Shown here piece after piece: positions 32,182 to 58,100 of a DNA stretch of 64,000 nt (positions are counted from its first letter, which is position 1; each line of letters begins with the position of its first letter). This DNA is from Curvularia clavata (Eukaryota), in contig CP089281.1 in the NCBI GenBank assembly GCA_023920165.1, positions 372,001 through 436,000 on the forward strand, in the 5' to 3' direction. The notes below the pieces were generated by a model. The model did no database searches, was not told where the DNA came from, and saw only the letters and a list, made by a program, of their open reading frames with translations. Both the position numbers and the translations under genes were made by a program.

Positions 32182-32666
32182 TCCTGATGTTTCAGCCGTA
32201 GCTCCAAGCAGCTATTTACAGAAGGTGACCGATCACGATAAGACTCTGTAGTGGCTGACGATATCCGCCTACCTTTGCAACTTTTATGTGCCACGCCACC
32301 TTACTACTACTAATGACTATCGAACACGAGGTTTTCAAGTTTGTGATTACTACTAGGAATAACTCTAAATCAATATGAAAGGTTATCTAGCTGTTAACGT
32401 GCCTCACAGGTTCGCGCGCCATGCAGGTTTACAGCCCGCACTAGCTATTATCTTTTCTAGAACATCTCTTTCATCACATGGTCTTTATTCCTGTTGGTAT
32501 TACGTGAGTGAGGTCTAGACATAGCTATCAGTGTATGACATATAAAATGTAAAAGTGCAGTAGACCACGTCTTAGTCTATTCAGAATATAAAAATTTGAA
32601 AATGTAGTAAATTATAAAGACCCGACCCTATAGAGAATTGAATCTATCATCTCTCTAGATTATAAA

Positions 32667-35600
32667 TGTAACGGCGCGAGCAAGACTAGTCGAATCAGTT
32701 CCGGTGGGAAGTGTCACTTAAATGCATATAGAAGTGCATGGGACAGTAGAAACACCTTAGATTTAGTAGATACTCATAGGCCTAGTACAAAAGAATATCA
32801 AAAATCTACTAAATATCTATAGAAGGTATCTAGTACTTATACTTAGGTGCAGGTCTTTATTAGGTCTAACTTAGCTCTTAATTAGATCTTGATAAGCTAC
32901 TCTAGCTAAAGTATGTTTTGGTCTATATATAGTTATATTACCTCCCCTTCTAGTAGATAGCTAGTCCTATAGCTATCTATTCTAGTTATTATTCTTCTTC
33001 TCTACACTATAGGGTCTCTCGTTCCTAATTTTCTCTAGATTTTCCCTATACTGCGCTACTCTAGGTAATAGAATACTCTAGTTTTAGTATAACTTCTATA
33101 GCTGTGTATATCCTTTACTTAAGCCTCTATACCTAAGTCTTAGTAACTATTCTAGTACTCACGTAGCGCTGCTGCCTTGCTGCCTAGCCGCTAGGCCGTT
33201 TATCTTTATCTGCTAGACAGGCCTAGACGCTTCGATTAGAGCTCCAAGTCGCCGGCGATTCGTTTGTAGTTAGGGTCTAACAGCTATTTAGGTTATATAT
33301 ACTAAGACTATTTACTTCTCTAGTGTATATATTAATAATAATATAGTATTGCCGCCAAGTTTTCTCCTCTACGCTTCTTAATTAAAATAAGTTAGTTATA
33401 ATTTAACGCACTCGTTTTCGCTATATCTCTTTATTATCTGCTTAGTGCGCTGCTAGATACGTATCGCTTTATCTATCTGCGAGCTATCTACGCCTTAGCG
33501 CGCTATTAGTTCGATATTGCTTACGCCTATCTATCTAATTTCTCTAAGAAGTGTCTTTATTACATCTAATAGAAAGAGAAATACGATTCTATAAGTTTAC
33601 TTTTCTTTTTCTTTACTATTTGCAGCTTAGCTAATCTAGATAGATTTCTAAGTATATTTTTAAAAAGTTTTATAATTTAATTAATACTATTAAGTTATAT
33701 GCTATTACTTAGTATAGCCCTATAGTTAATACTAATATAGAGGTATTACTTAATTAAATTGCTACTACTGCTTTAGATATCGCCTATAAAGTCTAAGTTA
33801 TTAGATTCTAGAAGAAAAAGCTTTTAGTTAATTAGCTTTTTATCGTTTAGAACTAGATCCTAAGGGATATCTAAGATAGTATTTTAGAGTTAGTTAATAT
33901 AGTTAATAGTATAGAAAGGCGCCTTTTGCGTCTTAAAGCTAGGTCGGCTTAGGGTGGCGTCTAGGTCGGCCCTTAGATTAAGGAGTTAGAGGAATAGTCT
34001 AGTTTATTCTCCTCCTCTAAGGAGGATAAGAGTGCGGTTAGCTAGGAGATAGCTAATACTAAGTAGGAGCGCTCTAATATTAAACTTTAAGTAAGGTAAT
34101 ATTTTAGAGGTTTGTTAGTAGTTATAAAGTTTAGATCTAAATTTTTTTTATTACTAATACCTAATAAAGTTTCTATTTTTTCTTTTTTTTAAATTTTATT
34201 ATTTTGTAGTAAAGTTATATTCTCTACATCTTATTCCTATACTATAATCTACTTGCTAAAGAAATATAGGGGTTCTAGTTTAGTAGAATATTATTTATAG
34301 AAGAGTTTAAGCTTGTGTAGGGCTTCTATAAAGTTTAAGACTAAGTATTAGATAGAATTTAGATTATATCTAACCTACTATACTTAGTATTTTAGATTTA
34401 AGCAGTATAACTTACTTACTAGAATTTCTTCTATCTTCTATTCTTTTACGCTTTAGATAGGAGTTGCTAAAAGTCTTAGAAATTTTTATTTTAGAAGAGA
34501 GTTTTAAAGATTTTTATATAATAGATCTAGGGCGAAGATATTATAGATCTAGAACTTTTTTAGAAGGTCTAAGTAGTATAAATATTCTATTTTCTTAAGT
34601 ACTCTAAAGGGCTTCTCTTATTTAGAGAATAGCTTCCTACTTAGATAGTCTAATATAAGATTCTAGATATTTAGGAAGACTATATCTCTAATATTCTAAT
34701 TAATAGAATAGTAATAGTAGTTAACTATAGTTTATATCCTATTCTAGACTTTCTCTATTTATTCTTTAACCACCTTCTATATATTATATATATAGGTAGC
34801 TATTTCTAATACATCCTTATAGTTAAGTTTGTTAGTAAGAGTAAGAGAGCTAGTAGAATATTTCTAGTCCTAACTCTGCTGGGGTTTAGAACTATATAGA
34901 ATATAGTATAGAGATATACTAATAGAAGAATATAGTAGGGAAATTTAAGTACAATTAATTAAGAGTAGAAGTCTACTCTAGTTATCTTAGTAGTAGAATA
35001 TAAAGAGGCGCAATCTATGATTAATATATTTATTTATAATCTCTATCTAATTATCTATTTTTTTATAGTAGATAGTTAATAGCTTAACCTTAACATCTAG
35101 AATTTAGCAGAATTCCAACTAAAAGCTTAAAATAAACTGTAGTTCTTAGTCAGAGACTATAGTTTTAGGTATATAGCTAAATCAGTATATCTATTAAATA
35201 AATAGATTAGCTATTCCCCTTACATTAATAGTCTTATAGTAGAAGATAGAGATAGTCTACTTAGATAACTAGTTAATCATAACTATAATTATATTATAAC
35301 TAGATTAGTCTTAAGAAAATTTCTTAAAGTTAATATATAGATGCTATATTAGCTAGTTAGAAATTAGTAAAAGATAAATTATCTCTAGAATTTAGATCTA
35401 TCTAGAATAGGCCTTTCTATAGGCTATACAATTCTGCATATATCTTTTATAGATAGATTCTATACCCTTCTAGTAGTATTTCTAGAATAGTAGTTAGTAG
35501 ATCTTCTTCATATTAGAGTGCGCTAAAAATACCTAGTTATATATTTTCTAAATAAGACGAGTTATAAAAGTAGAGATAGAAGGAATATATAGATAGTTAG

Positions 35601-38600
35601 AATAGAGTAGAAGTCTATTTTTAATCTAGTATCTATCTAGAAGGGACTTTCGCCCTACCCTAAATAAGGCTTAGTTCTCTTATAGAATAGACTTAATTAG
35701 TTCTAGTAAATTAAGAGATATTAGCTCTAATATAGGCTTAACTATAAGTAAAAAGAAAGATTCTACTTAAAGTTAGGCTATATAGATCTTAGTAAGTTTA
35801 GAGTTAATTTAGTTATTAAATTAGTATAGTCTTAGAAGGACCCGCGAATAGTTATTAATTTAGGCTATTTTTAAATTTCTTATATTTTACTTCTATTAGG
35901 AGAGGATATTAGTATAAGTATTATTTTTTCTAGAGATATATTAGATATAGAAATTAAAAAATACTAATTCTTCTATCTATTATATCTAGCAGGTATTTAG
36001 AACTTTAGTAGATATAAAGTATTTAAAGGAATAGTGGTCTAAATACATATTGATATAAAAGTGTATTAATAGTAGTTTAGATTGCCACTTACTAAATACT
36101 ATTATAATAGTAAATAGTTCTTTATTATATATTTTCTAATTTAGCTTAGATCTAGATAGGACCTTACTAAAGAATACTATAGATTACTAATTTCTATTTA
36201 GCTATTTTTAGAAAAGAACGTCTACTATAACGCTATTAGATGCGTTAGTCTCTATTTTAGTATTATACTTTAGATGGTAGTAGTATAAGATAGGAATTGC
36301 TAGTAGTATAGATTTTAATCTTTTAAAGATTTAGTTGTACTTTAAATTCTATATAAATAGTTTTAAAAGGCTTTAGAAGATAAGAAAAGATTTTATAATT
36401 TATAAGTATTTAGAAATAAACTATCTATAAAATCTAGTAAACTTTAGAAATAATTTTATACTAGTAATAGTAGTAGGTTAGATCTAATTTTAAAAGGTTT
36501 CTACTTTATTAGAGTCTATCTCTAGATCTTAGTTAGTTAAAATATACTTTAGGTATTTAGTCTAAGTAATATAGAATTTGCTTTTTTTAATGTTAATTTG
36601 GAGACTGGCTTATCTAAGCCTTTCTAAGATCTATTATATGTGGTGGGGGTGGTCTAGTTCTAATTTGGAATAGATTAAAATATTATCTAGATAGACAGTA
36701 TAGAAGCTGTCTAGATAATTAATTAATATATTATTTATATAGCGTTAATATATTATAGGGCTATTATATAATCTAAAAGGTAATACTTTAGACTTATAGA
36801 TTTTATATCTAATGTAGAATATAGTATACTTCTCTAAGTTAGGGTGTATTTAGATCTTATTAAATGCTGTACGTATATTAAGCTTAGTAAAAACTTTTGT
36901 CTTATAGATACAGGCTAGAAGCTTATTAATACGTAGTATTAGATAGATATTTTTTCTAGTAATTATATTAAGTTGGCGGTAATCTATATAGATATAAATA
37001 TCTCTATTTAACTTCTAAATATAACTAGAGAGATAAAGGGGTAGTAGCTTAGATTAATATATCTTTTTCTAAGATTTTCTATTATAAATATCTTAGTAGT
37101 TTTAAGTTTTTTAGTACTCTATTTATATAGAGGACTAAATTAATTTAAAAGAAGTTTAGTTAGTATAATTTTATAATTGTATAGGCGATATTTAGATAGT
37201 AGCTCTATTACTATTTTATTAAAGATATTGTGGTATAAATAGTAAGTAGATAGAAGTTAGTTCTAAATAAGTTTAGTATTTTTAGAATTATTTAGCTTTA
37301 TATACTTTTCTAAAATATAATTAATTTTATAGATACTTATTATAAAGAACTTATTTTTTTTATATTTTATAAAATAATAGAAAGTATTTACTAAAATAAT
37401 AGTAATATAGAGTAAAGATGTTAGTTAGATAGGGTCTAGAGTAGGGTTAGGAATAAATAGTAGTAGATAAATTTTAGGAAGTTTGAGGTATTCTCTAATT
37501 CTTTATATAAAAGCTTTATAAGGATTATTTTATTTATAGTAGTTATTTTTTTCTTATAGTGCGTCTCGTCTCTATATATTCTATTCTATATTAGTATTAA
37601 TAGAAGGTTGTTTTAATTATATAAGAATAGATAGCGCGGGATTATATATTAGAGGGTACTTAGCTGGCTATATAATCTAGTTCTAGCTTATATTAAGCTT
37701 AAGCTAGAAATATCTTAACTATTTAATTCTAATTATATAGTTCTATATCTCTAAATTTATAATTATAAAGAGATAGTTATAAATCTTTGTTTTATTAATT
37801 TAAATATGTAACTAAATATATTTATCTACTCTAATTTAGATTTAGTTCTAAAATCTTTTAACTATAATTTTAAAAAGAAGTTTTTAGATAGAGATCTAAA
37901 GAGAGCTAGAGAAAGTATAAATAATAGTAGAATTTAAGAATAAAAAGCTTTAGACTCTAGTATTAACTAAAGAGTATAAGCTAATACTAAACTCTTTTAA
38001 ATAAAGAATGGTAGATATTAGAAAGTATTTTTCTCTAAATAAGTAGAATAAATTAATTTTAGCTAGATTATACTTATTTATATTTAGAGTAGAGAGTTTT
38101 TTTAGATCTGGTGGTTTTCTATCTAGTCCTTCTCTAATAAGTATTCGTATACTTTTTTGAATTCTTTCTTCTCTATTTTGATTTCTTAAATCTAAGGAAT
38201 GGGGCACTTATTTATATAATATCTAGATTTTCTATAGTTATAGTAATTACTAATAGTTAGTTTACTATCTAGTGTAGAGGTTTTTAAAAGAAATCTGGAA
38301 ATATTAGAATAAGTGCGAGATTAGGTTAGAGTTAGTTTAGATTAGACTCTATAAGTATTTAGGTAGTAGTTTTAGTATTAACTAATATAGGGCTTTATTA
38401 GTAAAGTATAAGAATTATTAGAAGTGGGTTCTAAACTATATCTAAAAGGAGTGTTTTTTCTTTTAGTATCAAAAATAGTAAAGTATTATATTATTTTATT
38501 AAAGGAGTTATTCTACTAGTATTTAAATTTTAAGTTTAGAATATATAAGGTGGAGGTAATTTTTTTCTATAAGTAGAAAAACTACTCTAATTTTAATATA

Positions 38601-39856
38601 GATTTTTTAATAGTAGTACTTATAAATTTTATTTTAAATTTAGTAAAAGTTTCTTTTTTATTTATAAGTAAGTAGTAGAAAATAGTATGGCTTTCTACTT
38701 ACTTATTGCTAAATATAAAATATAATTTTAGAGTAGTTATTATATTTTTAGCGTTTGAGAACTGGTCCTCTACTAAATTAGCTAGATACTATAGTTCTAG
38801 ATATTTTAGCGATATTTATAGTATATCTCTAGACTAGAGTTATATATACGTATTTACTTTAATAATAGTCTATATTAATTATTAAGTAGTCTTCTATTAA
38901 TATTTGCTATTAGCGGAATATAGATTCTATTCTATTACTAAAATTATTAATAAAAAAGATATATTCTATAAGTTTAATATATAGTAGATTTAGAGTTACT
39001 AACTAATATTTTCTAAATTAAGTTATAGTTAGTTTAGCGATAGTTAGTAGTAATTTAGTAGAAAAGAGAAATTAATTTAGGGCTATAGTATTTTAGCGGG
39101 ATAGCTATATAATTTATTTATTTAGTCTATTAATCTCTATTTAAAGGAGGCTAGTCTTATTCTCTTCTAAATTCTCTTTCTCTTTAATAGCTAGTAGTTT
39201 ACTAGGCATCTTCTCTCTTAACTTTAAATTTTAGAAGTATAGTAACTTTCTAGAAAGCTCTTCTAAGCTAGATAGAGTTAAATTAGCTATTAATAGTTAT
39301 TTTTATAGCTAATAGATTTTTAGTAGTTTCTAAGTCTCTATTCTAGTGTAATCTACGCGACTTTTCTAAAGTTAATTTAACTATAATTAGTATAGAAGGT
39401 CTAAATCTAAAAGCTTTAGTTAGTGGGAGATTAAAAGGATTCTATCTATATATAAACATAGAACGTAATAGTATAAAGTATCTAAAGTAGTTTTAGAGAG
39501 ACTTAGACTTAGATATAGTTTTAATAAATAAGCTATAATATTATTTTAAAGACTATTACTAGCTAGAATAAGATTTTTAATATAATATAATAGTATAAGT
39601 AAGACTAGTTAAATTAGTTTTAGTAGAAAGTATTACTTAAATATATATAGAAGTGCGTAGAATAGTAGAAATATTTAAGATTTAGTAGATACTTATAGAT
39701 CTAGTATAAAATGATATTAAAAATCTACTAAATATTTATAGAAGGTATCTGGTACTTATATCTAGGTGCAGGTCTTTATTAGGTCTGACCCGGCTCTCAA
39801 TTGGATCTTGATAAGCTGCCCTGGCTGGGGTATGTTTTGGTCTATGTATGGTTATA
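32667..39856 (-). mobile_element. Full-length Ty3/gypsy chromovirus, copy A (7190 bp), RIP-inactivated
   Basis: LTRs 32667-32937 and 39586-39856; TSD ATAAA on both sides; PPT complement ttacctcccct at 32938; RT YLD(D)IL relic near 36685; chromodomain relic about 34300-34440. Confidence 0.93.
33423..33997 (+). pseudogene. RIP-mutated antisense accessory ORF of the chromovirus (copy A); Cys-rich N-terminus, coiled-coil C-terminus
   Basis: Indel-free frame over two exons (intron 33591-33643); all internal stops are TAA/TAG, reversible to CAA/CAG. Confidence 0.6.
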
Positions 39857-39861
39857 ATAAA

Positions 39862-42011
39862 ATCTCTCTAGCTTCGGCCTTTTGTAAGACATTTTAAGGA
39901 ACACTTTAGGTATTATTTTTGATATTTAAATGAAACTTAATAAATATAGTTTAGATCTAGCCTCTATAATACTATATTAGTATATTATCTAACCTTTCTC
40001 TTACGTCTACAATTTTGATATCTTCTATCTTTATATTACTATCTCTATCTATATATTACGATCTAAGAAAAGAGGCACATATAAAATATATCGTAATAAT
40101 ACTAAATATAATTACGTCTAGCGATAGTTATTAGTTTAGAAGATCTAATCTAAAATACTATACTATAAATCTTCCTACTATACTATAGTTATATAACTAC
40201 TTAGTAATAAGTAAGTACTTACTACTAAGTAGAATCTATAATACTTGATACTAAATCTAGATAGCTAATTGTAATTAAAAAATAGACTAATTAGAGATAC
40301 TTAGTAATAAATAGTAAAGTATTTAATAATAAGTAAGCTATACTTTTTAGTATATAGTAATAGATGTTAAACTCTTATAGCTTAATATTTTTAATTTAAG
40401 TTATAAATATTAATATAATATATAAGTTATTTATAGAAATATTGATAATATGCTATCATTTTATTTATAAAAACTAATTTAACAAGATGTTAATACTAGA
40501 AGTTTTATATTATTTCTATTTAAAGTTCTACTCTTGATACTTTAAATATCTTTATGATAAGTAACATTACTATATATACTTTTGATATTTTCTAAACTAG
40601 AAAATCTACTATCTATAAATATAAATCTAATTTATACTATAGAAAATAGAAAAAGTTTAAAGCTTGTCCCTTCTAGATTGATTAGTATTTCTATCTTAGA
40701 AAAAATAAAAAATTAATAATACTAAAAAGTAAATTAACTCTATTATTAAATAATATATAGATAGTTCTATCTGAAATACTAATAATATAGCCTTAATTAA
40801 GAATTATAATACCTTTAAAACTAAAATATAATAAAACTTTTTACTATTCAAAAGATTTGTTATTAGAAGATAAAAGATTTAAGAATTTTACTAGATATAG
40901 TCTACTACTAAATATAGTATTTTATTTTAGTAGTATACTATAGTTATAGAATAAAATAAGAATACTCTTATATATATATATAAGTCAGATTTTAAATCTG
41001 TTATATATAAAAAATTTATATAAAATAGAGCTAATATTAATAAATAAGAAAAACATATTAAGAAATCTATTAAACTAGATAATAAACTTTATAAAATTTT
41101 ATTAGAGAAATGACTATTTAGTAAAAAGATATATAACTAGAACTATATAAATAAATAGCCTAAAAAGCATAGTTATTAACATACTTACTCTAATCAGAGA
41201 TACTAATAAAACTATATACTTAAAACTCTAAGAGTCTACTTTAAATATAGTATAGAACTAATATATCTTGATAATATGAATAAAAATAATAGAACTACAT
41301 AATGGATTTGGTAAAAAACTATTTGAAAGTAAGAAGAGATTTAACTATTATATCTATAGTAAAGAAGGCTGGATAGTTTAGGACTATAAAAGTAAAAATA
41401 CTAATAAAATTCAATAATGGCTTAGTAGACTATAAAAGAATCTAGAACTAAATAATAATAAGGGATGGAATATTATTATACTAGCTATAATCTAATACTA
41501 TTCAGACAACGATGGACTCATTAAAGAACTTAAAAATATTACTATCACTATATTAAAAGATAAAATTAAAGCTAAAAAAGTAATAAAGGATATGAAATAC
41601 TAAGAGAGAAGAAGAGATTTTTTACAAGTGAGTATAAAAAATAGCTAAATTTAAAAAGAAATACTAAATAGCTACTTTATACAATAATAACGTTTTACTA
41701 GATATTCTATATCTAACATATAACCTAGAAGACGTAGAACTATAGATAGATAGATTATTTATTTATTTCTGTTTTTATTTCTTATAACTGGCTCGACTAT
41801 AGCGATTGGATAATATTAAAAAGTAGTTTTAAAATAAAGGTAGGCCGCCCCTTAGTCTACTAAAATTCAAAAAAATAAAAGAAAACTGTATCTAAGAGGA
41901 GATTTAAATATAAGATTTTAAACTTCCATATTTTAAACTTTTATATTTTTAGCTATATATAATATATCTAATTTGCTTTGGCTTTTTATAGAATATTTTA
42001 TAAAATATCTT
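39862..42011. mobile_element. Unclassified, heavily RIP-mutated repeat
   Basis: RIP composition; start resembles 27376-27570; end resembles 63505-63710; no domain recognised. Confidence 0.5.
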
Positions 42012-43475
42012 ATAAATATAACCATATATAGACTAAAATTTACCCTAGCTAGAGCAGCTTATTAAAATCTAATAAAGAACCAGATTAGATCTAATAAAGA
42101 CCTATATCTAGATATAAGTACTAGATACTTTTTATAAATGTTTAGTAGATATTTAATATTCTTTTATACTAGATCTATAAATATCTACTAAATTTAAACT
42201 ATTTTTATTATCTTACGTACTTCTATATATATCTAAGTAATACTTTCTACTAAAACTAATTTAACTAGTCGTACTTATACTATTATATTGTATTAAAAAA
42301 TTTATTTTAGCTAGTAATAGTTTTTAAAATGATATTGTAGCTTATTTATCAAGACCATATTTAAGTCTAAGTCTATTTAAAACTACTCTAAATACTTTAT
42401 ACTATTATATTTCAAATTTATATATAAATAGAATTTTTTTAATTTTCTACTAACTAAGATTTTTAGATTTAGATCTTCTATACTAATTATAATTAGATTA
42501 ATTTTAGAAAGGGTATATAGATTACGCTAAAAAAGAGACTTAAAAACTACTAAAAATTCATTAGCTAGAAAGATAACTATTAATAGCTAACCAAACTCTA
42601 TCTAGCTTAAACAAGACTTCTAGAAAATTATTATGCTTTCAAAATTTAAAGTTAAGAAGGAAAATATCTAGTAAACTACTAGCTATTAAAGAAAAAGAAA
42701 ATATAAAAGAGAATAAGACTAGTATTTTTTAAGTAGAATTTAATAAACTAAATATATAAATTATATAGCTATTCTACTAAAATACTATAGCTTTAAATTA
42801 ATCTCTTTTTTCTACCAAATTACTACTAACTATTACTAAACTAAGTAAAACTAAATTTAAAAGATACTAGTTAGTAATTCTAAATCTGCTATATATTTAG
42901 TCTATAGAATATATCTCTTCTATTAATAACTTTAGTAATAGAATAGAATTAATATTCTATTAATAGTAAATATCAATAGAAAACTACTTAATAATTAATA
43001 TAAACTATTATCAGAATAAAAATATATATATAGATTTAGTCTAGATATATACTATAGATATTACTCAAGAATATCTAAAACTATAGTATCTAGCTAATTT
43101 AGTAGAGAACTAGTTCTAAAATACTAAAAATATAATAGCTACTTAAAAATTATACTTTATATCTAGTAATAAGTAAGTTAAAAGCTTTACTACTTTTTAC
43201 TATCTATTTATAAGTAAAAAAGAAACTTTTATTAAATTCAAAAAAAAAATATATAAGTACTACTATTAAAAAATCTATGTCAAAGTTAGAGTAGTTTTTG
43301 TATTTATGAGAAAAGAATTATCTTTATTTTATATATTCTAAATTTAGAATTAAAATATTAGTAGAATAATTCCGTTGATAAAGTAATATAATATCTTACT
43401 ATCTTTAATATCAAATAAAGAAATACTTTTTTTAGATATAATTTATAATCTACTTTTAATAATTCTTATACTCTA

Positions 43476-45584
43476 CAGTGGGGTGACACGAAAAAAGATC
43501 ACAAGGAAAAATAGCATTTTTCACTAGGCTATATCTTAGCTAATAAAATAGCTAAAAATATAACAGCTTAAGATTTGTATAGAGAATTACCAGCTCTTCT
43601 AGTCTATAATCTAAAAAAAAGTTTAGTAAGTAAATAGCTCTTATAAAACAAAGCTAAACTAGTGAGAAAAAAAATCGTCAACTTTACACGTATTTTTCGC
43701 GCTGAGATCTTGCAATTTATATAGCTATCTATATATAGATATATACTATTAGTATATATATATAATATATATTTTTTATAGCTATAGTTATTTATCTAAA
43801 TTAGAAGATATATATATAACTTATATTTTAGTAAATATATAAGATAATAATAGTAAATTACTATCTAATATTTTGTATACCAGCCCTTAGCTTCCACTAC
43901 TCTATTATAGCGTTTGGGCATAGATAAAATACAGCTATCTATGTCTTTTTGTGGTATTTTATGCCACTCTTGGTGAATAGCTGTAAAAAACGTATTTATA
44001 CTAGTCTCACTAGCGCCAGTGCCAAGACTAGAGCTTGGCAGCTTAGTAAGCCGATTTTTAAGTAAGCTCCATACGTTTTCTGTTGGATTTAGATCTGGGC
44101 TATACGCTGGATGGTCGAAAAGTGTAATCTTATCGCGCTTAAACCAGTCTAAAACGTTTCTAGCTTTGTGGATTGTTGCGTTATCTTGTTGGAATTTCCA
44201 GCCTAAATAGATATGGATTAGCTAACTATAACTGTATAGTTAGACTTATATATATATATTTATATATTTAGATATATATATATATATAAGTAAAAATATA
44301 TAGCAGAACTTACCGCGTTTTATATTCGGTTTTATATATGGTATTAGACATTTTCTAATATAGTGGTGATTTCGATGTTTTACTACGCTATTTGGCGTTT
44401 TAATAACCACTAGATCGGATCTGCCACCTATCCAAATAGCTCCCCAAACTTGGATAGTTATATCATGGGCTAAAAATTGGCTTAGTCAGCTAGATATATA
44501 AATTATAATATATATATATAGTTATAAATATATATAACTATATTTTGGCTTATTAGAAATATTTTTAAACGTACTTGTATTTTTAGTAGAGTATATTTTT
44601 GGATTTTGGTGGTATTTTGGCCTATTTCGAGAAAATTCGGCTCGAGAGCCATATCCACGCTGGATTCCAGACTCGTCAGAAAATATAATCTTGTTAAAGT
44701 TAATATTACTAAACTTTTTAAGCGTAGTTTAAGCGTACAATAGCCGTTTTTTAGCTTTTTTAGCGTTTAAAATTAGCTTTTTTTAACTAGTTGTTATAGT
44801 CCAACCCTCAGCTTTTAAAACTCTTTGAAGAGTTCTATTAGATATTTCTAGATTATTTTCGTTTAATAATCTATTTTTTTGCTTTTTTAGACTTCGCGTT
44901 ATATCTCTATTTAACGCTCTTATAGCTCTAGTAGTTGTCTTTGGTATTCTGCCTAAACTAGCTCTTTTTGGCTCACTAATAGTCTTATATTTTCGTTTTA
45001 TTCGAGCTATAGCGTTATATATAGACCGTGGATTTTTTTGAAAGTAATTAATTATATTTTTTATAGGTGTATTAGCGTCTAAAAACGCTTTGATTTGGCG
45101 TTCGAAATTCGACAGTTGTGGCTCCATTGTGTGGGGAATACAGTTTTAAGTTGCTAGAAATGAAAAGCTATAGTTATATACTAGTTGATTACTAATGGCT
45201 GACTAAGCTAGTGCTTATGTAAGCTAGTGCCAAAATTTCAAATCTCATATAGCTATTTAACTAGATAGACAACTATAGCTTAAAGCTATATATATTATAT
45301 ATAAATACTAATAGTATATATCTATATATAGATAGCTATATAAAATAACAAATATCAGCGCGAAAAATACGTGCAAAGTTGACGTTTTTTTTTCTCTCTA
45401 GTTCAGCATTTCTTTCTAAGAGCTATATACTTACTAAGCTTCTTTTTAGATTATAGACTGGAAGAGCTGGTAATTCTCTATACAAATCTTAAGCTTTTAT
45501 GTTTTTAGCTATTTTATTAGCTAAGATATAGCCTAGTGAAAAATGCTATTTTTCCTTGTGATCTTTTTTCGTGTCACCCCACTG
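43476..45584 (-). mobile_element. Tc1-like DD34E DNA transposon, copy 1 (2109 bp), long TIRs
   Basis: CAGTGGGGTGAC...GTCACCCCACTG ends; imperfect TIR about 325 bp; CTCTA on both flanks. Confidence 0.93.
43865..45127 (-). pseudogene. Tc1 transposase, 3 exons, 348 aa when spliced, with premature TAA stops
   Basis: FSDES, VWGAIW, FQQDNA-34aa-SPDLNPTENVW, GWYTKY*; introns 44574-44470 and 44313-44203. Confidence 0.88.
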
Positions 45585-48500
45585 CTCTATTAATAAATCT
45601 TTAAATTAGTTAATATTAAAACTACTATCTAAATACTTGTAGAGTCTAATTTAAACTAGTTTTAATCTAACTTTATATTTATTTTAATATTTCTAGATTT
45701 TTTTTAAAGATCTCTATACTAGATAGTAAATAGACTACTAGTGGTCACTATAACTATAGAAAATTTGAATATTATATACATAAGTACTCTATTCTTGAAA
45801 TTTAAAACATTAAAGTAGAAAAAGAAGAATTTAAAAAAGTATATAAATACTGATTAACAAAAGACTCAATAGAAAATTATTAAATTTAAGAAAACTTTCT
45901 ATTTTAGAAATAAATAAGTATAATTTAGCTAAAATTAATTACTAGTATTTATTTAAAGAATAATACTTTCCCGTCTCTAGTATTCTTTATTTAAATAGAT
46001 CCAATATTAGCTTTTACTTTTTAGTTAATACTAGAGTTTAAGATTTTCAATTTTTAAATTCTATTATTACTTATACTTTTTCTAGCTTTCTTTAGATTTC
46101 TATCTAAAGATTTTTCTTTAAAATTATAGTTAAAAGATTTTAAAACTAAGTTGAAATCAGAGTAGATAAATATATATAGTTATATATTTAAATTAATAGA
46201 AGAAGGATTTATAACTGTTTTTTTATGATTATAAGTCTAAAATGTAAAACTTTATAATTAGAATTGAATAGCTAAAATATTTCTAATTTGAACTTAATAT
46301 AAGCTAGAACTAAATCATATAGCTAGCTAAGTATTTTTTAATATATAATTTTACGCCTTCTATTCTTATATAGTTAAAATAATCTTTTATTAATACTAGT
46401 ATATAATAAAATATATAGAGATAAGATATGCTATAGGGAAAAAATAACTACTAGAAATAATTTATCCTTATAAAGCTCTTAAATAAGAATTTAGAGAATA
46501 CTTTCAACTTTCTAAAGCTTATCTACTACTATCTATTTCTAACTCTACTCTAGACTCTATTTGATTAATAATTCTACTCTACATTACTATTATCTTTGTA
46601 AAAACTTTCTATTATTCTTTAAAATAGAAAAAACATAAGTCTTTTATAATAAATATTTATAAAACTAACAATATTCTAGAAGAGTGTATATAGTTAGATA
46701 ATTTTCAAAATACTAAACTTATTTAGAACTAACTTCTATCTACTTACTATTTATACTATAATATTTTTAGTAAAATAGTAGTAAAGCTACTACTCAAATA
46801 TTACCTCGATAATTATAAAATTATACTAATTAAATTTTATCTAAATCAATTTAACCTTCTATATAAGTAGAGTACTAAAAAACTCAAAGTTACTAAAATA
46901 TTTATAATAAAAAACTTTAGAAAAGAATATATTGATTTGAGTAACTATTTCTTTGCTTTACAATTTTTTTATATTTAGAAACTAAATAGAAATATTTATA
47001 TTTATATAGATTATCGCTAACTTAATATAATTACTAGAAAGATTGCGTATCTAATACTATGTATTAATAATCTTTTAGTCTATACTTATAAAATAAAAAT
47101 CTATACTAAACTTAATATATGTATAGTATTTAATAGAATCTAAATATATTTATATTTAGAGAAGTATACTACGTTTTATACTGGATATAGAATCCATAAG
47201 TTTAAAAAATCTTCTTTCAAATTATATAATAGTTTTATAATATATTAATGCTATATAAATAATATATTAATTAATTATCTGGATAGCTTTTCTATAGTTT
47301 ATTGAGATGATATTTTAATCTATTTTAAATTAAAACAAGACTATCTCTACTATATATAATAGATTCTAGAGAGGCTTATATGAATAGATTTTTAAATTAA
47401 TATTAAGAAGAGCGCATTCTATATTATTTAGACTAAATATCTAAAGTATATTTTAATTAACTAAAATCTAGAAATAGACTCTAATAAAGTAGAAGCTCTT
47501 TAAAATTAGATCTGATGTACTACTATTACTAATATAAAGTTATTTCAGAATTTTTTTAATTTTATAAATAGTTTATTTCTAAATACTTATAAATTATAAA
47601 ATTTCTTTTTACTTTTTAAAGTCTTTTAAAATTATTTATATAGAATTCAGAATACAACTAAGCTTTTAAAAAACTAAAATCTATACTACTAGTAATTTCT
47701 ATTTTATACTACTACTATCTAGAGTATAATACTAAATTAAGATTAATATATCTATTAGTATTATAGTAGATATTTTTTATTAAAGTAGCTAGATAGAACT
47801 TAGTATTTTATAGTATTCTTTAGTAAGATTCTATTTGAATTAGAGCTAAACTAGAAAATATATGATAAAGAACTATTTATCATTATAATAGTATTTAGTA
47901 AATAGTAATCTAAACTACTATTAGTACGTTTTTATATTAATATATACTTAGACTACGGTTTTTGAAATATTTTATAATTACTAAAATTTTAAATATCTAT
48001 TAGATATAATAGATGGAAAATAAGTATTTTTTAATTTCTATATCTAATATGTTTATAGAAAAAATAATATTTATACTGATATTTTTTTCTAATAGAAGTA
48101 AGATATAGGAAATCGAGGGATAGTCAAAATTGATAATTATTTATTAGTCTATCTAGAACTATGATAACTTAATAACTAGATTACTTTTAAATTTACTAAG
48201 ATCTATATAGTCTTACTCTAAATGACATTTTTTTTATCTATATTTAAGTCTATATTAAAACTAATTTTTTTTAATTTATTAGAGCTAATTAAGTCTATTG
48301 TATAAATGAACTAAACTTTATTTAAAGTAGAGTGAAGACTCTTTTTAGATAGATACTAGAATAAAAATTAATTTCTACTCTATCCTAAGTATCTATATAT
48401 TTTTTCTATCTTTATTTTTATATATTGTTTTATTTAGAAAGTATATAACTAAGTTTTTTTAGTATACTTTGGTATAAAGAAGACCTACTAGCTACTATTC

Positions 48501-48933
48501 TAGAAGTACTACTAGAAGAATATAGAATCTATCTATAATAGGTATATATAGAATTATATTATCTATAAAAAGATATATCTTAAATGGATTCAAACTTTAA
48601 AAATAAAATATTTTCTACTAATTTCCTACTAGCTAATATAGTATATATATATTTAGTTTAAGAGTTTTTTCTAAAACTAATTTAGTTATAATATAATTAT
48701 AGTAATAATTAACTAGTTATCTAAGTAGACTATTTCTATTCTCTACTATAAAACTATTAATATAAGAGAAATAGCTAACCTATTTATTTGATATATATAC
48801 TAATTTAGCTATATACTTAAAATTATAGTCTCTAACTAAGAATTATAGTTTATTTTAAGCTTTTAGTTAGAATTCTATCAAATCTTAAATGTTAAAGTTA
48901 AGCTATTAACTATTTACTATAAAAAAATAAATA

Positions 48934-51042
48934 CAGAGGGGTGACAAAAAGAAAGACCAATCAAAAAGGTAGCAGTTTTAGAACGAGTATAACTCGGCCG
49001 ATAGGATAGCTAAAAATATAGAATATACTGTTTTATGTAGGGATTATTCAGCAGTTTAAGTCTAGGATTTTAAATATAGCTTAGTCAGCATAGAAGAAAT
49101 ATAGTAAACTTTTAAAATAGAGTAAAGAAAAAACGCAAAATAAAAGCTACTTTCTCGCGCTTAAATATTTGAGTATTCATTGTTTTTAGTAAATATATAT
49201 AATATAACCATATATATATATAATATATATTTTTTACACCAATAGCTATCTATCTAAATTGTTAGATATATATATAAGTTATATTTTAGTATTTATATTA
49301 GATAATAACTATAAAGTACTATCTAATATTTAGTATACCAGCCCTGAGCTTCGACTACCCTATTATAGCGTCTTGGCATAGATAAAATACAGTTATCTAT
49401 ATCTTTTTGTAGTATTTTATACCACTCTTGGTAAATAGCTGTAATAACCGTATTTATACTAGTCTCACTAGCGCCAGTGCCAAGACTAGAGCTTGGCAGC
49501 TTAGTAAGCCGATTTTTAAGTAAGCTCCATACGTTTTCTGTTGGATTTAGATCTGGGCTATACGCTGGATGGTCGAAAAGTGTAATCTTATCGCGCTTAA
49601 ACCAGTCTAAAACGTTTCTAGCTTTGTGGATTGTTGCGTTATCTTGTTGGAATTTCCAGCCTAAATAGATATGGATTAGCTAACTATAACTGTATAGTTA
49701 GACTTATATATATATATTTATATATTTAGATATATATATATATATAAGTAAAAATATATAGCAGAACTTACCGCGTTTTATATTCGGTTTTATATATGGT
49801 ATTAGACATTTTCTAATATAGTGGTGATTTCGATGTTTTACTACGCTATTTGGCGTTTTAATAACCACTAGATCGGATCTGCCACCTATCCAAATAGCTC
49901 CCCAAACTTGGATAGTTATATCATGGGCTAAAAATTGGCTTAGTCAGCTAGATATATTAAATACAAAATATATATATAGTTATATATATATATAACTATA
50001 ATTTGGCTTATTAGAAATATTTTTAAACGTACTTGTATTCTTTGTAGAGTATATTTTTGGATTTTGGTGATACTTTGGCCTATTTCGAGAAAATTCGGCT
50101 CGAGATCCATATCCACGCTGGATTCCAGACTCGTCTGAAAATATAATCTTTTTAAAATCTATATTAGTAAGCTTTTTAAGCTTATCTTTTGCGTAAAGTA
50201 GCCATTTTTTAGCTTTTTTCTCGTTTAAAATCGGCTTTTTTTGACTTGTTGTTATAGTCTAGCCTTCTGCTTTTAAAACTCTTTGAAGAGTTCTACTAGA
50301 TATTTCTAGATTATTTTCGTTTAATAATCTATTTTTTAGCTTTTTTGGACTTCGTGTTATATCTCTATTTAGAGCTCTTATAGCTCTAGAAGATGTCTTT
50401 GGAATTCTGCCTAGACTAGCTCTTTTTTGCTTACTAATATTAGATTTTTTCTTTTTAATCCGTTTAATAGCGTTATGTATTGACTGTGGCGGTTTTTAAA
50501 AATAGTTAATGATATTTTTTATAGAAGTATTTGCGTCTAGAAATGCGTTAACTTGACGTTCAAAATCTGAATATTTGGGCTCCATAATGTGGGAAATACA
50601 GTTTTAAGTTGCTAGAAATGGAAAGCTCTAGATATATACTAGTTGATTACTAATAGCTGACTAAGCGGCTGCTTATATAAGCTAGTGCTAAAATCTTAAA
50701 TTTTATATCGCTGTTTTATTAGATAGACAACTATAGCTATATAAGATATATATAAAATATATAGATGGATAGTCTCTATCCATGTATAGATAATCATAAA
50801 AACTACAAAACCTAAGCGCGAAAAATACGTGTAAAGTTGACGTTTTTTTTTCTCTCTACTTTAGTCTTTTTTTACGAAGACTTGATGCTGACTAAGCCAG
50901 ATTTTAAATCCTAGTCTCAAACTACTAACTAATCTCTATACAATATACTAGCTACTTAACTTTTAGCTATTTTATTAGCTGAGTTATATAAGTTTCAAAA
51001 TTGCTACTTTTTTGATTGGTCTTTCTTTTTGTCACCCCACTG
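48934..51042 (-). mobile_element. Tc1-like DD34E transposon, copy 2 (2109 bp), divergent TIRs
   Basis: CAGAGGGGTGAC...GTCACCCCACTG ends; same layout as copy 1 at offset +5458. Confidence 0.92.
49323..50585 (-). pseudogene. Tc1 transposase copy 2, 3 exons, with RIP-type stops
   Basis: Same motifs; introns 50032-49928 and 49771-49661; CAA>TAA and TGG>TAG stops at different sites from copy 1. Confidence 0.87.
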
Positions 51043-52900
51043 CAATATCGTTAACATAAGCAATAGAGTTAATAATACTCTGATCTAGTTTGATAAAGCT
51101 AGATATACTATAATTAACAGTTTAAATATCGAAATATAATATATAAAATATATTATAAAATATTCTATGAGAGGCTCAAGCAGATTATTTATTTATAGTT
51201 CTAGATATTAAAGAGTTCTTTTGAATAATATTTTAGCTTAGTTCCTAGTCTAGCTTATATAGAAGGCGTACTCTATTATTTATTTTGATTATATATAATA
51301 TTCTTAATGTTTTTCAAATTTTAATATAATAATTAGCGTATAGTTATAGATTTGGAAGTATTAAAGACTAGTTATACTATTCATAGTAGTTCTATTTAGT
51401 TATCTTATAGCTTAGTTATATACATCTATAGATATTATCTTAAAGTTCAATTTATTCTTTATATTTAGCTGTCTGTTTTTAAATAGCAGCTACTTAAAAG
51501 TTTTTACTAAATACTTAATTTTACTAAAAATATAGTTTAGTATAGAATTATAAATAATTTATCTTTATCTTTACTAGATTTTTTATACTCTATTTTTGGC
51601 TAAAAGTACTTTAGTAACTTTACATACATATTTTTTTACAGTAATAATTTTTTCTATATATATATATTTTATAATGTTAATCAATTAATTAATAATTACT
51701 AGTATACTATTATAAGAACGTATAGATCTAGGTTTTAATAACTTCAGAAGTTTTATTATAAAATCTATTATTATACTACTCTATAGTCTAGTAAGTAGTA
51801 TTAGAAATTATAATAAACTATAGAGTTTGTATCTCTTAGACTTATTCTAGTAATATACTTGATAGTTATTTAGAATATTTTATATCTATACTTTGAAGTA
51901 TAGTATCATAAAAGTTTTAGCTAGTTGTCTAACTATTCTTTTAGTTTCTCTATATCTATATTCAGAAGACTTATATAGTTCTTAAATAAGATTTTTTTAA
52001 TACTTAGTAATATACACATTTATTTATTCTATATTATATTTTGATATTTCTACTTATTATCTAGTAGATTATAAAAGTTATCTTTATTAGAGTTAAACTA
52101 CTAGTTTAGTACTCTCTTTTATTATCATTACTGTAGTATTAAGACTCAATAGACAACTATCTGAATTTTTATCAAATTAGATTAGATATATCTTAGACCT
52201 TTATTAGCGATATAGTTGAAAATTATATTATATTGTTTCTTATATTCTTCTATCTTTAGACAAGAGTATTAGCTTAGATTATTAGCTACTCTATTCAATG
52301 ATTTTATATAATATATTATTTTAAAATTAAACTTAATAACTATTTATTTTGCTAAATTTATTATTAGTAAAGTTTTTTATTTATCATAAAGCTTATTAGA
52401 TTCTAGTAATTGACAAAGATTTTATTTATATCTAGAAGTTCTAATAAGTAGATTTTATATTATCTAAAAGTATCAACTATTCTAAATAGCTTTTTATTCA
52501 AAATATTTTATTTGAGTTCTATTCTAAAGAAATTTATTAAATAGTAGAATATTAGTCTCTATTTCTTTTTTAGATACTACTATAAAAACCTAATTTTTGA
52601 TATACAGTTAAATATATTAATTTTAACTTAAGTTTTTTATTTCAAATCATACATTTTAAATATAGATACTTTAAAGAATATCTACTTTAGTTTTTTTAAA
52701 GCTTTTTAGTAATCTTTAGTCTAGTAAAATGTTATTTCTTTCTTAGTGATTTTAGTAAGTAGTACTATAATTTAGAAAAAGTTTTTTAATGAATTTTTAG
52801 TAGAAACATATAAACTCTAGAAAAACCATGTATCTTTAATTAATTTAGAGATTAACTATTTCTATATAGTTTAGACTTTTGTTAGATTTATTGTAATACT
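51043..52900. mobile_element. Unclassified RIP-mutated sequence; continues at 61944 after removing copy C
   Basis: RIP composition; split by the copy C insertion (TSD ATACT). Confidence 0.5.
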
Positions 52901-53310
52901 CGTAACCATACATAGACTAAAATATACCCCAGCCAGGATAGCTTATTAAGATCCGATTGAGGGCCAGGTCAGATCTAATAAAGACCCGCCTCCAGATATA
53001 AGTACTAGCTACCTTATATAGATATTTAGTAGATTTTTAATATCTTTTTATACTAGGCCTATAAATATCTACTAAATTTGAAATATTTCTATTATCTTAC
53101 GCACTTCTATATATATTTAAATAATACTTCCTACTAGAACTAATTTAACTAGTCTTACTTGCGCTATTATATTATATTGAAAATTTTATTCTAGCTATTA
53201 ATAGCTTTTAAAATAATATTATAGCTTATTTATTAAGACTGCGTTTAAGCCTAAGTCTCTCTAGAACTATTTTAAATACTTTATACTATTACATTCTATA
53301 TTTATATATA

Positions 53311-55157
53311 ACGTGGTTCACAAGCGAGCGGCTCACCCAACCGAGCGGCTCACGCCCCACCAGCGCGCCGACGTCGACACGTTATTACGGTCTTTTATCA
53401 CAGTCAATAAACTATTACGATATACCAATTTAATTATCAGAATCGCCGCTATCACTTACACTATCTATCTCAACTGCACAGGTACGAGCGTTGTGTCCAG
53501 TCTGCTTGCAACGCCCGCACCGCCTCTCTCCTCGCACCCTCTTCGACGCACTCTCACCGTCGCCACGACTGCTACCCGCCTGTTTAGCTAACACTTCTTG
53601 TACTTCGCCTACAGTAAGAGTCTCTTCTGTCCATACGTATCGCCGCTTGCGGCTCTTACGCTTATTTGACTCGTCAAGAGCCGCTTGAAGAGTAGTAATT
53701 TTCTCTATCAGAAGCACCATCTTATGTGCCATTTGCTGAGCCCCTTTACTCAACTGCGCGATCTGCTCGGTAAGTGAATTGGCAGAAGACCCACAGCGAT
53801 TTCTCACGCTCTGTTGAATAAGACCAATTTGAGCCTCAACCTCGCGCGCGTTGCGTGGTGTCTGCGCCTCCCAGGCGGCTGCCCGTCGCGGTGATTAATG
53901 TGGTGTCTGCACCACCACATCAAGCTTTGATAGCACAGCCTGTGGGTCGTGTAGGACTAGACCAGCACCTCTAAAGCCAGCTTGAATATTCTCCTTCGTG
54001 ATAGACTACTCAAAAGCCGCCTTAAAGGCTAGCAGGAAAGTCTCCTTGCTAATATAGTTAGTACGGTTGCGTGCCAAGCCTGAAACAGCGTCGCCATACT
54101 TGCGCTTCAACGGCGAGAAGCAGGCGACGTCAAGAGGCTGCAATAGGTAAGACGAGTGCGCAGACATACAGAGAAGAACAATATTCTTCTCCTTATAAAG
54201 ATCTTAAAATTCGACGGAGCAGTGGCTCTCATAGCTGTCGATAATCAGCAGTCGATACCCACCTACAGTATGCCTCTTTATATAGATATCAAAGTACTCT
54301 AGCTAGACAATACTAAGCTAATTATTCGTCTAGCTATTAGGACTAACTTCAAGAACCTAGTCGGCAGGCAAATTTTCAAACTAGACGTTAATAAGCACCT
54401 TGCCCGCAAAGACAACAAAGAGTGGTATCCAGCAACCCAACACGCCCACGCCTTAGATCGTAGTAACCCACTTACAGTTGCCTAGCTATACCCGCTTCTT
54501 TTTGCCATATTCTTCTAAGCCTATAATAACTAACTATAATAAAATCTTGCCTATTATAAAGCTAGTCTCGTCAAAGTTGTAGATATCGTCGTCTATAATA
54601 CCCTACTTCTGCTTCATCGCCTAGACTAAGTCAAACTAGCGTTAGATAGCTACTAGATCCTCGCAGGCGGCTCGCTAGTAATCATAGGGACGGCTCCAGC
54701 GCGTACAGATTTTAGGAGTTCGCTTAACAAAGTTATCAACCCAGTTCTTGCCAGTAAGATTGCTCTCCCGCTCATACAATAGTTTATCAGCCATTGCTCG
54801 AACGTTAGCCTTTGTAGGCGCAAATCCTCGCGCAGACTCTTCAAGAATACGCTCAACTATAGCCTCCTCTTCTAGCTTATTTAGGCGCTTTAAATTCGGT
54901 TTGCAGTCGCGTCAAGAGCGTCTTCCAGCGCGTTGGTAAGACAAAGTTCTTTAAGGCACATTATAGATAGAGGCAGCACGTCTTTAGCTTTAAACACGTT
55001 ACGATTAGATATTAAAAAGAGCAAATTAAAGATCTAATTCAGGATAAGTTGATTAATTATCGCGTTGCTGAGACATAACGCGTTGTAGTGTCGACGTCGG
55101 CGCGCTGGTGGGGCGTGAGCCGCTCGCTTGGGTGAGCGGCTCGCTTGTGAACCACGT
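53311..55157 (-). mobile_element. pogo/Fot1-type DNA transposon (1847 bp), moderately RIP-mutated
   Basis: About 70-bp TIRs ACGTGGTTCACAAGCGAG...; TA TSD; transposase about 55076-53430 with NFDET, LQPLDV relics and C-terminal CGRCKQTGHNARTC. Confidence 0.93.
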
Positions 55158-58100
55158 TAGATAGAATCCTTTTATTCTCCTACTAATTAAAGCTTTTAGA
55201 TTTAGACCTTCTATACTAATTATAATTAGATTAATTTTAGAGAAGTCGCGTAGATTACGCTAGAGTAGAGACTTAAAAATTACTAAAAATCTATTAGCTA
55301 TAAAAATAACTATTAATAGCTAACTAAACTTAATCTAGTTTAGAAAAGCTTTCTAGAAAGTCGCCGCGCTTCTAAGATTTAAAATTAAAAGAGAAGATGT
55401 CTAGTAAACTACTAGCTATTAAAAAAGAAGAGAATTTAGAAGAGGATAAGACTAGCCTCTTTTAGATAGAAATTAATAGACTAAATTAATAAATTATATA
55501 GCTATTCTGCTAAAATACTATAGTCTTAGATTAATCTCTTCTCTCTACTAAATTACTACTAACTATTATTAAACTAACTAAAACTCAATTTAGAAAGTAT
55601 TAGTTAATAATTTTAGATTTACTATATATTAAAATTATAGAATATATCTTTTCTATTAATAATTTTAGTAATAGAATAGAATCTATATTCTACTAATAGT
55701 AAGTGTTAATAGAGAACTACTTAATAATTAATATAGACTATTATTAGAGTAAATGTGTATATATAGCTTTAGTCTAGAGATATACTATAGATATTGCTAA
55801 AAGATATCTAGAACTATAGTATCTAGCTAATTTAGTAGAGGACTAGTTCTAAAATACTAAAAATATAATAGTTACTTTAAAATTATACTTTATATCTAGT
55901 AATAAGTAAGTAGAAAGCTATTCTACTTTCTACTATTTGCTTATAGATAAAAAGAAAACTTTTACTAAATTTAAGATAAAATTTATAGATGCTACTATTA
56001 AAAGATTTATATTAAAGTTAGAGTAGTTTTTCTATATATAGGAAAAAATTACTTCTATTTTAAATATTCTAAACTTAGAATTTAAATACTAGTAGAATAA
56101 CTTCTTTAATAAGATAATATAATGTTTTACTATTTTTAATACTAAAAGAAAGAATAGTTTTTTTAGATATAGTTTATAACCTATTTTTAATAATTATTAT
56201 ACTTTACTAATAAAGCCCTACGTTAGTTAATACTAGAACTACTATTTAAATACTTATAAAATTTAATCTAAACTAGTTCTAATCTAATTTTATATCTATT
56301 CTAATACCTCTAGGTTTTTTTTAAAGATCTCTATACTAGATAGTGAACTAACTACTAGTAATTACTATAACTATAGAAAATCTAGATATTATATAAATAA
56401 ATGCTCTATTTCTTAGATTTAAGAAATTAAAATAGAGAAGAAAGAATTTAAAAAGGTATACAAATATTTATTAGAAGAGGACTAGATAGAAAACTATTAG
56501 ATTCAGAAAAACTCTCTACTTTAGATATAAATAAGTTTAATCTAGCTAAAATTAATCTATTTTACTTATTTAGAGGAAAATACTTTCTAGTCTCTACTAT
56601 TTTTTATTTAAAAGGCTTCAGCGTTAGCTTATATTTTTTAGTTAATACTAAAGTTTAAGATTTTTTATTTTTAAATTCTACTTTTACTTATACTCTTTTT
56701 AGCTCTCTTTAGATTTCTATCTAAAGACTTTCTTTTAAAATTATAGTTAAAGGATTTAAGAACTAAGTCTAAACTAGAGTAGATAAATATATTTAGTTAT
56801 ATATCTAAATTAATAGAAGAAAAATTTATAACTATTTCTTTATAATTATAGATTTAGGGATATAAGACTATATAATTAGAATTAAGTAGTTAAGACGTTT
56901 CTAACTTAGGGTTAATATAAGCTAGAACTAAGTTATACAGCTAATTAAGTATCTTCTAATATATAATTTTGCGCTCTCTAATCTTATATAGTTAAAACAA
57001 TTTTCTATTAATACTAATATAGAATAGGATATATAGGGATAAGACGTACTATAGGAAAAGGATAACTATAAGAAATAAAATAGTTCTTATAAAACTCTTA
57101 TACGAAGAATTAGAGGATATCTTAAACTTTCTAAAATTTGTCTACTACTGTCTATTTCTAACTTTACTCTAGACTTTATCTAACTAATATTTTCACTCTA
57201 TATTACTATTATTTTAAAAATACTTTCTATTATCCTATAAAGCGTAAGGAAAATAAGTTTTTTATAATAAGTATCTATAAGATTAATTATATTTTAGAAG
57301 AGTATATAAAGCTAGACGATTTTGAAAATGCTAAATTTATTTAGAACTGATTTCTATCTTCTTACTATTTGTACTATAATATTTTTAGTAAGATAGTAGT
57401 AGAGCTACTATCTGAATATTGTCTATATAATTATAAAATTATGCTAACTAAATCTCTTTTAAATTAATTTAGTTCTCTATATAAGTAGAGTACTAAAGAA
57501 CTTAAAGCTATCAAAATATTTGTAATAGAAAATCTAAGGAAAGAATATATTGATCTAAGCTACTATCTCTTTATCTTTTTAGTCTTTTATATTTAGAAGC
57601 TAAATAGAGATATTTATATCTATATAGAATACTACTAATCTAATATAATTACTAGAAAAAATACGTATTTAATACTATATATTAATAAGCTTCTAGTCTA
57701 TATCTATAAAGTAAAATTTTTTACTAAGCTTAATATACGTATAGTATTTAATAAAATCTAAATATACCCTAACTTAGAGGAGTATACTATATTCTATACA
57801 AGATATAGAATCTATAAGTCTAAAGTATTATCTTTTAGATTATATAATAGCTCTATAATATATTAATGCTATATAAATAATATATTAATTATTTATTTAG
57901 ATAGCTTCTATATAGTCTATTTAGATGATATTTTAATCTACTCTAAATTAGAACTAGACTATCTCTACTACGTATAATAGGTTTTAGAAAGACTTAGGTA
58001 ACCTAGTCTCTAAGTTAATATTAAGAAAAGCGAATTCTATATTATTTAGACTAAATACCTAGAGTATATTTTAATTAACTAAGGTTTTGAGATAGACTCT

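Follow-up and report, generated by a model that had tools for sequence, protein, structure and literature searches.

A two-intron Tc1-like transposon family of Curvularia clavata with a RIP signature under selection in its coding sequence

Curvularia clavata is a fungus of the Pleosporales, and the persistence of transposons under RIP is usually ascribed to asexual bursts, small size, divergence or horizontal transfer. In C. elegans, the Tc1 copies reportedly exchange sequence and hop locally, a finding attributed to Fischer et al. 2003; as far as that account goes, the family described here is alike in having copies that swap sequence, but RIP is absent there, whereas here the exchange is proposed to filter RIP damage. 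Tc1-like elements are defined, in the available part of the source, by an HTH and a DD34E transposase of ~340-350 aa (PMC4054914). The present family shares with Tc1, Sleeping Beauty and the fungal impala the CAGT...ACTG ends, the TA target and the HTH plus DD34E transposase, and it differs from the typical element in terminal inverted repeats of ~338 bp instead of 12-28 nt, in two introns that are conserved in a 51%-identical relative, and in a low-GC coding sequence (~0.35) with depletion of RIP contexts. Its identity to the GC-balanced Tc1 without introns in the same genome is only 30%.

Among RIP-competent fungi, Podospora has two centromere-enriched TE families, crapaud and discoglosse, according to the accessible text (10.64898/2025.12.02.690432); discoglosse is described there as having taken over centromeres after RIP loss, unlike the family studied here. 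A route of the kind 'RIPed but still functional, then new burst' has been named as a possible escape (PMC10787394), and the phylogenetic pattern predicted by this route is stated in the part available not to have been observed for crapaud, for which that part holds no synonymous-site test, unlike the present study. Concerted evolution has been proposed to remove RIP damage from the Podospora NWD/NLR repeats (10.1101/2025.09.29.679196), which in the accessible portion are tandem repeats in host genes, whereas here the copies are those of a dispersed transposon. The Starship paper, in the passages available, deals with vulnerability to RIP and not with adaptation. In literature titles and abstracts, a scope outside which most subscription journals fall, no description was found of a fungal transposon that is active and also depleted of RIP targets at its synonymous sites. 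New in the present family are the pervasive recombination between copies, the residence in AT-rich blocks and the low share of heavily RIPed copies.

The element, its gene and its copies

The window, i.e. the whole stretch of 64,000 nucleotides that was analysed (contig CP089281.1, positions 372,001 to 436,000), passes at ~32.6 kb from gene-rich DNA (GC ~0.5) into an AT-rich block (Table 1). Ordinary host genes occupy 4692-32181 and encode a pescadillo, a ZIP transporter, a Mur-ligase-domain protein, a P-type ATPase and a protein kinase, the last of which adjoins the AT block; a 601-aa ORF at 28178-29983 was without Pfam match. The sequence-only reading had drawn attention to 43865..45127, which covers the coding part only, and the whole element spans 43476-45584. 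That reading had described the gypsy ORFs around it as destroyed, and no ORF of >=100 aa was found in the LTR element that surrounds copy A. The target duplication of copy A is 5 bp long and ends in TA, as checked against two empty paralogous sites. A 5-bp duplication as a family-wide trait was rejected. Nearly all other copies have TA, and TA ends 40 of the 43 distinct half-site flanks. Copies A and B are 84% alike overall. To the right of copy B, the DNA at 51043-52900 does not continue the host LTR element; it is a distinct degenerate repeat of 1.85 kb that has 67-71% matches in other AT blocks, and the junction is a rearrangement at the element end.

Table 1. Positions of the element, its gene and its surroundings in the window
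Feature	Position	Strand
Copy A, Tc1-type element, 2,109 bp, ends CAGT...ACTG	43476..45584	-
Copy B, diverged mosaic copy of the Tc1-type element	48934..51042	-
5' terminal inverted repeat of copy A, ~338 bp, 90% complementary to the 3' repeat	45247..45584	-
3' terminal inverted repeat of copy A, ~338 bp	43476..43813	-
Target site of copy A, 5-bp duplication	43471..43475, repeated 45585-45589	n/a
Exon 1, HTH region, first catalytic Asp D151 (44675-44677), both copy A stops	44575..45127	-
Intron 1, 105 nt, GT..AG, rich in TA microsatellite; skipped in contigs of X16 and X19	44470..44574	-
Exon 2	44314..44469	-
Intron 2, 111 nt, GT..AG, rich in TA microsatellite; skipped in contigs of X16 and X19	44203..44313	-
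Exon 3, D243 (44183-44185), E278 (44078-44080), PF13358 DDE_3	43865..44202	-
509-bp tract identical between copies A and B, conversion tract	43991..44499 (A), 49449-49957 (B)	
Chromodomain Ty3/gypsy element, heavily RIPed; hosts copy A, abuts copy B	42017..48933 (approximate limits)	+
AT-rich repeat block, GC ~0.24, onward to ~C8:448 kb; putative centromere (inferred)	32600..64000	

Once two GT..AG introns are removed, the transposase frame runs from an ATG at 45127 to a terminator ending at 43865 and comprises 348 codons, with the catalytic triad D151/D243/E278 and 34 residues between the second D and the E, i.e. DD34E. The best match among solved structures (PDB) was Sleeping Beauty (E 9e-12), and PF01498 scored above the cut-off in exon 1 of the sister copy L005; when copy A was taken by itself, its first 111 aa gave no PF01498/HTH match. 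All the Tc1 features that could be tested were found, and the lineage is a Tc1-like element. The GC of the coding sequence is ~0.34-0.35; in copy A, GC3 is 0.27, TpA/ApT is 1.33, ATA is the commonest Ile codon, and 8 TGG, 11 CAA and 5 CAC codons are kept, so that the AT- and TpA-rich composition, the clean 348-aa spliced frame and the retained codons and triad were all correctly described from the letters. As a rule of thumb, a TpA/ApT of 1.3 reads as RIPed. About two RIP-type stops per copy at differing sites had also been claimed. There are two in each copy and the sites do differ, codons 115 (44783-44785) and 133 (44729-44731) in copy A and codons 30 and 109 in copy B, but the RIP origin fails for one of them: codon 115 changed from CAA to TAA, whereas codon 133 is AAA in 9 of the 12 copies compared and its TAA in copy A is an A-to-T transversion. 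Besides its two RIP-type stops, copy B has a cluster of four CpA>TpA changes in exon 3.

In public contigs of two of four runs (X16 and X19, belonging to two studies), both introns are missing, as CT..AC skips of exactly 105 and 111 nt; beyond the missing introns, the RNA status of these two runs is conjectural. A single contig of 1,130 nt covers the entire spliced frame, and both stop positions of copy A read as open codons in contigs of three runs; contig depth is uninformative on the level of expression. Runs X15 and X20 cover the element partially and without intron joints. Record 13 of run X19, over 43936-44448, represents a family member that has diverged further and whose intron-2 joint differs, and its contig depth is far above that of the close match.

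The genome search returned at least 159 matches, from the 40 of 50 candidates that were scored. Nineteen near-full copies are 69-99% alike, with an open frame in five, in-frame stops only in seven and frameshifts in seven, and stop-free copies as well as spliced contigs thus exist, as an active lineage would have them. In L003, which has an open frame, the terminator reads CAG and the protein would run on. Copies that are 97-99% identical lie at unrelated TA sites on different chromosomes, which points indirectly to cut-and-paste transposition. Copy A and L002 carry the same two stops at unrelated sites, and we therefore infer that defective copies have been mobilised in trans. A GC-balanced, CpA-rich master copy was not found: 30 loci from the DNA search have an element GC of 0.20-0.32, and in the protein search the 29 matches at >=65% identity were all family copies, with the next matches at <=41%, both searches being lower bounds. 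A RIP-inactivated relic would have differences that are almost all C>T/G>A, closed frames and a GC-rich source, but the copies differ by many transversions, 5 of 19 frames are open and no such source was found; the relic description fits L020, L025 and L022 only.

RIP signature in the coding sequence

The controls came mainly from the same genome. The window itself holds, at 53311-55158, a RIPed element used as control, which we take from its end motif and size to be pogo/Fot1-like; several pogo copies are without private transversion and have lost 26-62% of CpA/TpG. L086 and L087 (G000 C1:1717-1724 kb and C1:147-154 kb) are young un-RIPed chromodomain Ty3/gypsy elements with GC 0.51, identical over 7,196 bp, and at least seven young copies score alike. 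L067, L066, L068 and L069 represent two GC-balanced intronless Tc1 families (1,356 bp / 361 aa and ~1,637 bp / 433 aa), and their open-frame pairs lie in gene-rich DNA.

We scored the positions at which a C/T or G/A change is synonymous. In the open frame of L005, C or G is kept in 13 of 101 RIP contexts as compared to 78 of 233 others (OR 0.29, p 9e-5), and the OR is 0.25 in L014 and 0.31 in the 76% subfamily L023. Two other Tc1 families reach an OR of 1.05 and 1.16, and the six host ORFs lie at 1.7-2.8; gag and pol of the young LTR element have 0.86 and 1.52. One pogo ORF has 0.48, though it is not depleted in a codon-shuffle test, in which synonymous codons are swapped among like residues while protein and codon usage are held fixed. 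By that test 19 codon-junction CpA/TpG were seen against 40.0 +/- 4.5 expected, none of 2000 shuffles was as low, and none of six controls was depleted. Depletion at non-synonymous sites is weaker (OR 0.63; z ~2.1 for the difference, from counts), and the view that dispensable CpA/TpG had already been lost is borne out. Between subfamilies, dN/dS lies at 0.23-0.34, and at 0.40 for the pair that includes copy A; this purifying selection agrees with the selection supposed at first, and damaging changes are enriched among private variants (damaging to synonymous 110:46 private vs 151:122 shared, p 0.002). The RIP context of this genome is CpA: in a copy from one of the other Tc1 families, 62 of 182 CpA are gone vs 18 of 472 other C, with one transversion. 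Methyltransferase genes with open frames are present that, by domain layout, are presumably RID-like and DIM-2-like.

Our results show that the coding sequence reflects RIP-type mutation filtered by selection on the transposase, i.e. a RIP scar under selection, and they do not demonstrate resistance to RIP. It is likely that the family is an autonomous cut-and-paste Tc1 (DD34E) lineage that has long been under CpA-directed RIP. The sequence-only reading was right about survival of RIP under selection, but its word 'pre-adapted' overstates the case because losing synonymous targets by itself protects nothing; 20 stop-creating targets are left, or 5.7 per 100 codons, within the control range of 4.1-8.3. 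Those non-synonymous targets that were kept do not fall on better-conserved residues (23/56 vs 127/234, p 0.10).

An ordinary recent burst of an AT-rich Tc1, through horizontal transfer or expansion since the last cross, combined with generic AT bias and with clustering by mere tolerance of gene-free regions, would account for the young copies. Other families also have young un-RIPed copies, so that open frames alone prove nothing, and their use as proof of resistance was rejected on the same ground; pogo, moreover, is likewise enriched in AT-rich blocks (10/16 vs 29/36, p 0.18). Such a burst does not account for the composition, which already contradicts this part of the explanation: the codon-shuffle test controls AT bias and codon usage, the equally AT-rich Tc1 frame L132 (GC3 0.24) has an OR of 2.1, and subfamilies 75-88% alike within one genome all carry the signature. 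We consider the burst very improbable.

Among recent private changes 5 of 133 are CpA>TpA, which is no RIP excess, and T>C outnumbers C>T in the polarised variants (83 vs 41); the shaping is therefore not caught in the act. T>C reversion is not in excess at TpA (37/432 vs 46/553), and thus there is no evidence of biased repair of RIP changes. Loss of CpA might instead come from mitotic Dim2-linked C-to-T in heterochromatin, not from premeiotic RIP, with the AT-richness due to location; the available part of the source on Zymoseptoria states that Dim2 promotes C-to-T at CpA during mitosis (PMC8016269). The majority of copies lie in AT-rich blocks, as this route would have it, and a DIM-2-like gene with open frames is present. 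However, the resident copies have almost no private CpA>TpA, the two young LTR copies have stayed identical, and other families are damaged all-or-none and with hardly any transversions, as bursts predict, which makes the mitotic route unlikely, though it may have acted in the past.

Recombination among copies and residence in AT-rich blocks

The nearest-neighbour copy switches along every copy examined. Four-gamete conflict among 16 copies rises with distance from 0.06 (<50 bp) to 0.67 (>600 bp; permutation p<0.001), on transversions only, which RIP cannot cause, and with L020, L021 and L023 left aside as heavily RIPed or too distant; the rise persists once six near-duplicates are dropped. 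In the pogo control, 16 copies gave no four-gamete conflict over 27 sites, with few informative transversions that mostly split two subfamilies. Identical tracts of >=500 bp join 4 of 11 pairs within a block vs 7 of 142 others (p 0.004), the codon-115 stop is common to otherwise different copies, and copies A, B and L009 have short patches of CpA>TpA on one strand. These mosaics were seen in one assembly, in which assembly chimerism is possible. We infer that gap repair or ectopic conversion makes the family behave as a recombining population, and recombination between copies is the likeliest reason why the signature can arise, a causal link to composition that is drawn from two families only.

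In the mechanism that we propose, RIP would strike copies episodically, often as short patches. Repair of excision gaps or ectopic conversion, favoured between neighbours, would then shuffle segments of a few hundred bp, so that harmless RIP changes could part from lethal ones and spread family-wide, and working haplotypes could be put together again. A non-recombining family would survive or perish as a whole, and its survivors would remain GC-rich; untouched GC-rich masters were seen in pogo, in the other Tc1s and in the LTR element. The resulting AT-rich, target-poor sequence would take somewhat less damage in each round of RIP, and it may also trigger less RIP.

About 29 of 36 independent insertions, counted from the genome search, lie in AT-rich blocks, which total ~455 kb or 1.4% of the genome within rough limits, as compared to 3 of 23 matches of other Tc1s, of which RIPed copies are harder to detect there. 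Local hopping makes insertions non-independent, and the block limits in this test are rough. Local target preference alone was rejected as the cause of enrichment, the expected share being 0.05-0.30 against 29/36. The TA target is CA, TG or CG in the un-RIPed young LTR element at five of six mappable sites, both window copies included (CA for copy A), while 35 of 41 flanks did not map. These insertions therefore postdate the RIP of the host and used sites that RIP made, in keeping with the early claim of insertion into RIP wreckage.

The blocks are ~35-65 kb long, one or two per contig, and the accessible part of PMC13068351 gives a mean of 44 kb and a GC of 22-28% for putative Alternaria centromeres; by this resemblance the AT-rich blocks are probably putative centromeres as well. 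The genome consists of 8 contigs, and the four contigs with listed matches have telomere repeats at both ends and none internal. Two blocks each lie in C1 (1724-1773 kb and 3866-3916 kb) and C3 (2492-2516+ kb and 4276-4315 kb), both with telomeres at both ends, where a fusion, an inactive centromere or a plain repeat island is possible.

Relatives, resistance and meaning

The sole close relative with DNA is the metagenome locus L115, which has 51% aa identity, both introns at matching positions and 303 codons stop-free to the contig end. At its synonymous sites C or G is kept in 5 of 101 RIP contexts vs 74 of 208 others (OR 0.09), and its NCA:NCT codons stand at 6:34 vs 267:238 in controls (p 2e-6). 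Four of six prolines common to both are CCA in the present family and CCT in L115. Since the third base agrees in only 9 of 20 common NCN codons, the pattern has probably been maintained separately in both lines. The exon-1 relatives are 15 proteins at 45-70% from ENA, Logan and JGI metagenome or read assemblies, with none from annotated genomes; for exon 3, metagenomes again supply relatives, at 73% and 57%, Bipolaris fragments reach 54%, and an exon-3 search of longer proteins gave just three matches, at 41%. Of the distant metagenome Tc1 frames of testable length, 2 of 11 have significant, milder depletion (OR 0.28 and 0.45). The clade has fewer M, C, V, H and W, a suggestive shift, which is not independent of phylogeny or AT bias. 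Among four metagenome exon-1 proteins (P0179, P0180, P0181, P0183), each of two N-terminal types occurs with each of two C-terminal types, which hints at mosaics in another host or at assembly chimeras.

True resistance would mean that the sequence was selected to trigger or suffer less RIP and, with the AT-rich heterochromatin niche, left copies largely untouched through sexual cycles. Heavy RIP (>25% of CpA/TpG lost) affects 3 of 29 copies here vs 11 of 15 pogo copies (p 5e-5), and the pogo copies look no older, with private transversions mostly 0-1.1 per kb vs 0.5-7 here; but recombination can import private transversions and so inflate apparent age, two un-RIPed copies from another Tc1 family have 4 transversions between them in 1,637 bp, and copy L020 has lost 104 of 130 targets. 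Non-synonymous targets are reduced to ~20 per 100 codons (11 in L115) vs 24-33 in controls, and the NCA avoidance of L115 means safe codons gained by transversion, which RIP cannot make. In the present family, however, NCA:NCT is 26:34, which is no departure from the controls (p 0.17), and the vulnerable CCA still encodes 15 of 18 prolines. AT-rich repeats trigger about fivefold less RIP, as stated in the available part of PMC10787394, which would favour resistance; the gain in survival per round is modest, since a hit rate of 15% leaves the frame open in 4% of cases vs 0.8% for a control Tc1, and the recent variants are without RIP excess. We regard resistance as possible but doubtful, and the scar of RIP kept under selection as shown.

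Transposon persistence in RIP fungi is an open question: survival through RIP with function has been proposed, and its demonstration was not found in the literature searched. The present family is a case that can be measured against controls from its own genome, and the mechanism proposed for it, in which recombination between copies separates harmless from harmful changes, can be tested. RIP indices can mislabel live, expressed elements as dead, and the clade may be widely missed, its relatives being found only in metagenome and read assemblies. Tentatively, and with less than even confidence, we suggest a widespread, unannotated two-intron Tc1 clade that lives in RIP-made centromeric heterochromatin, lands on TA sites created by RIP, purges RIP damage as a recombining population and has RIP-safe codons selected, most clearly in L115; such a clade would be adapted to genome defence and not merely escaping it.
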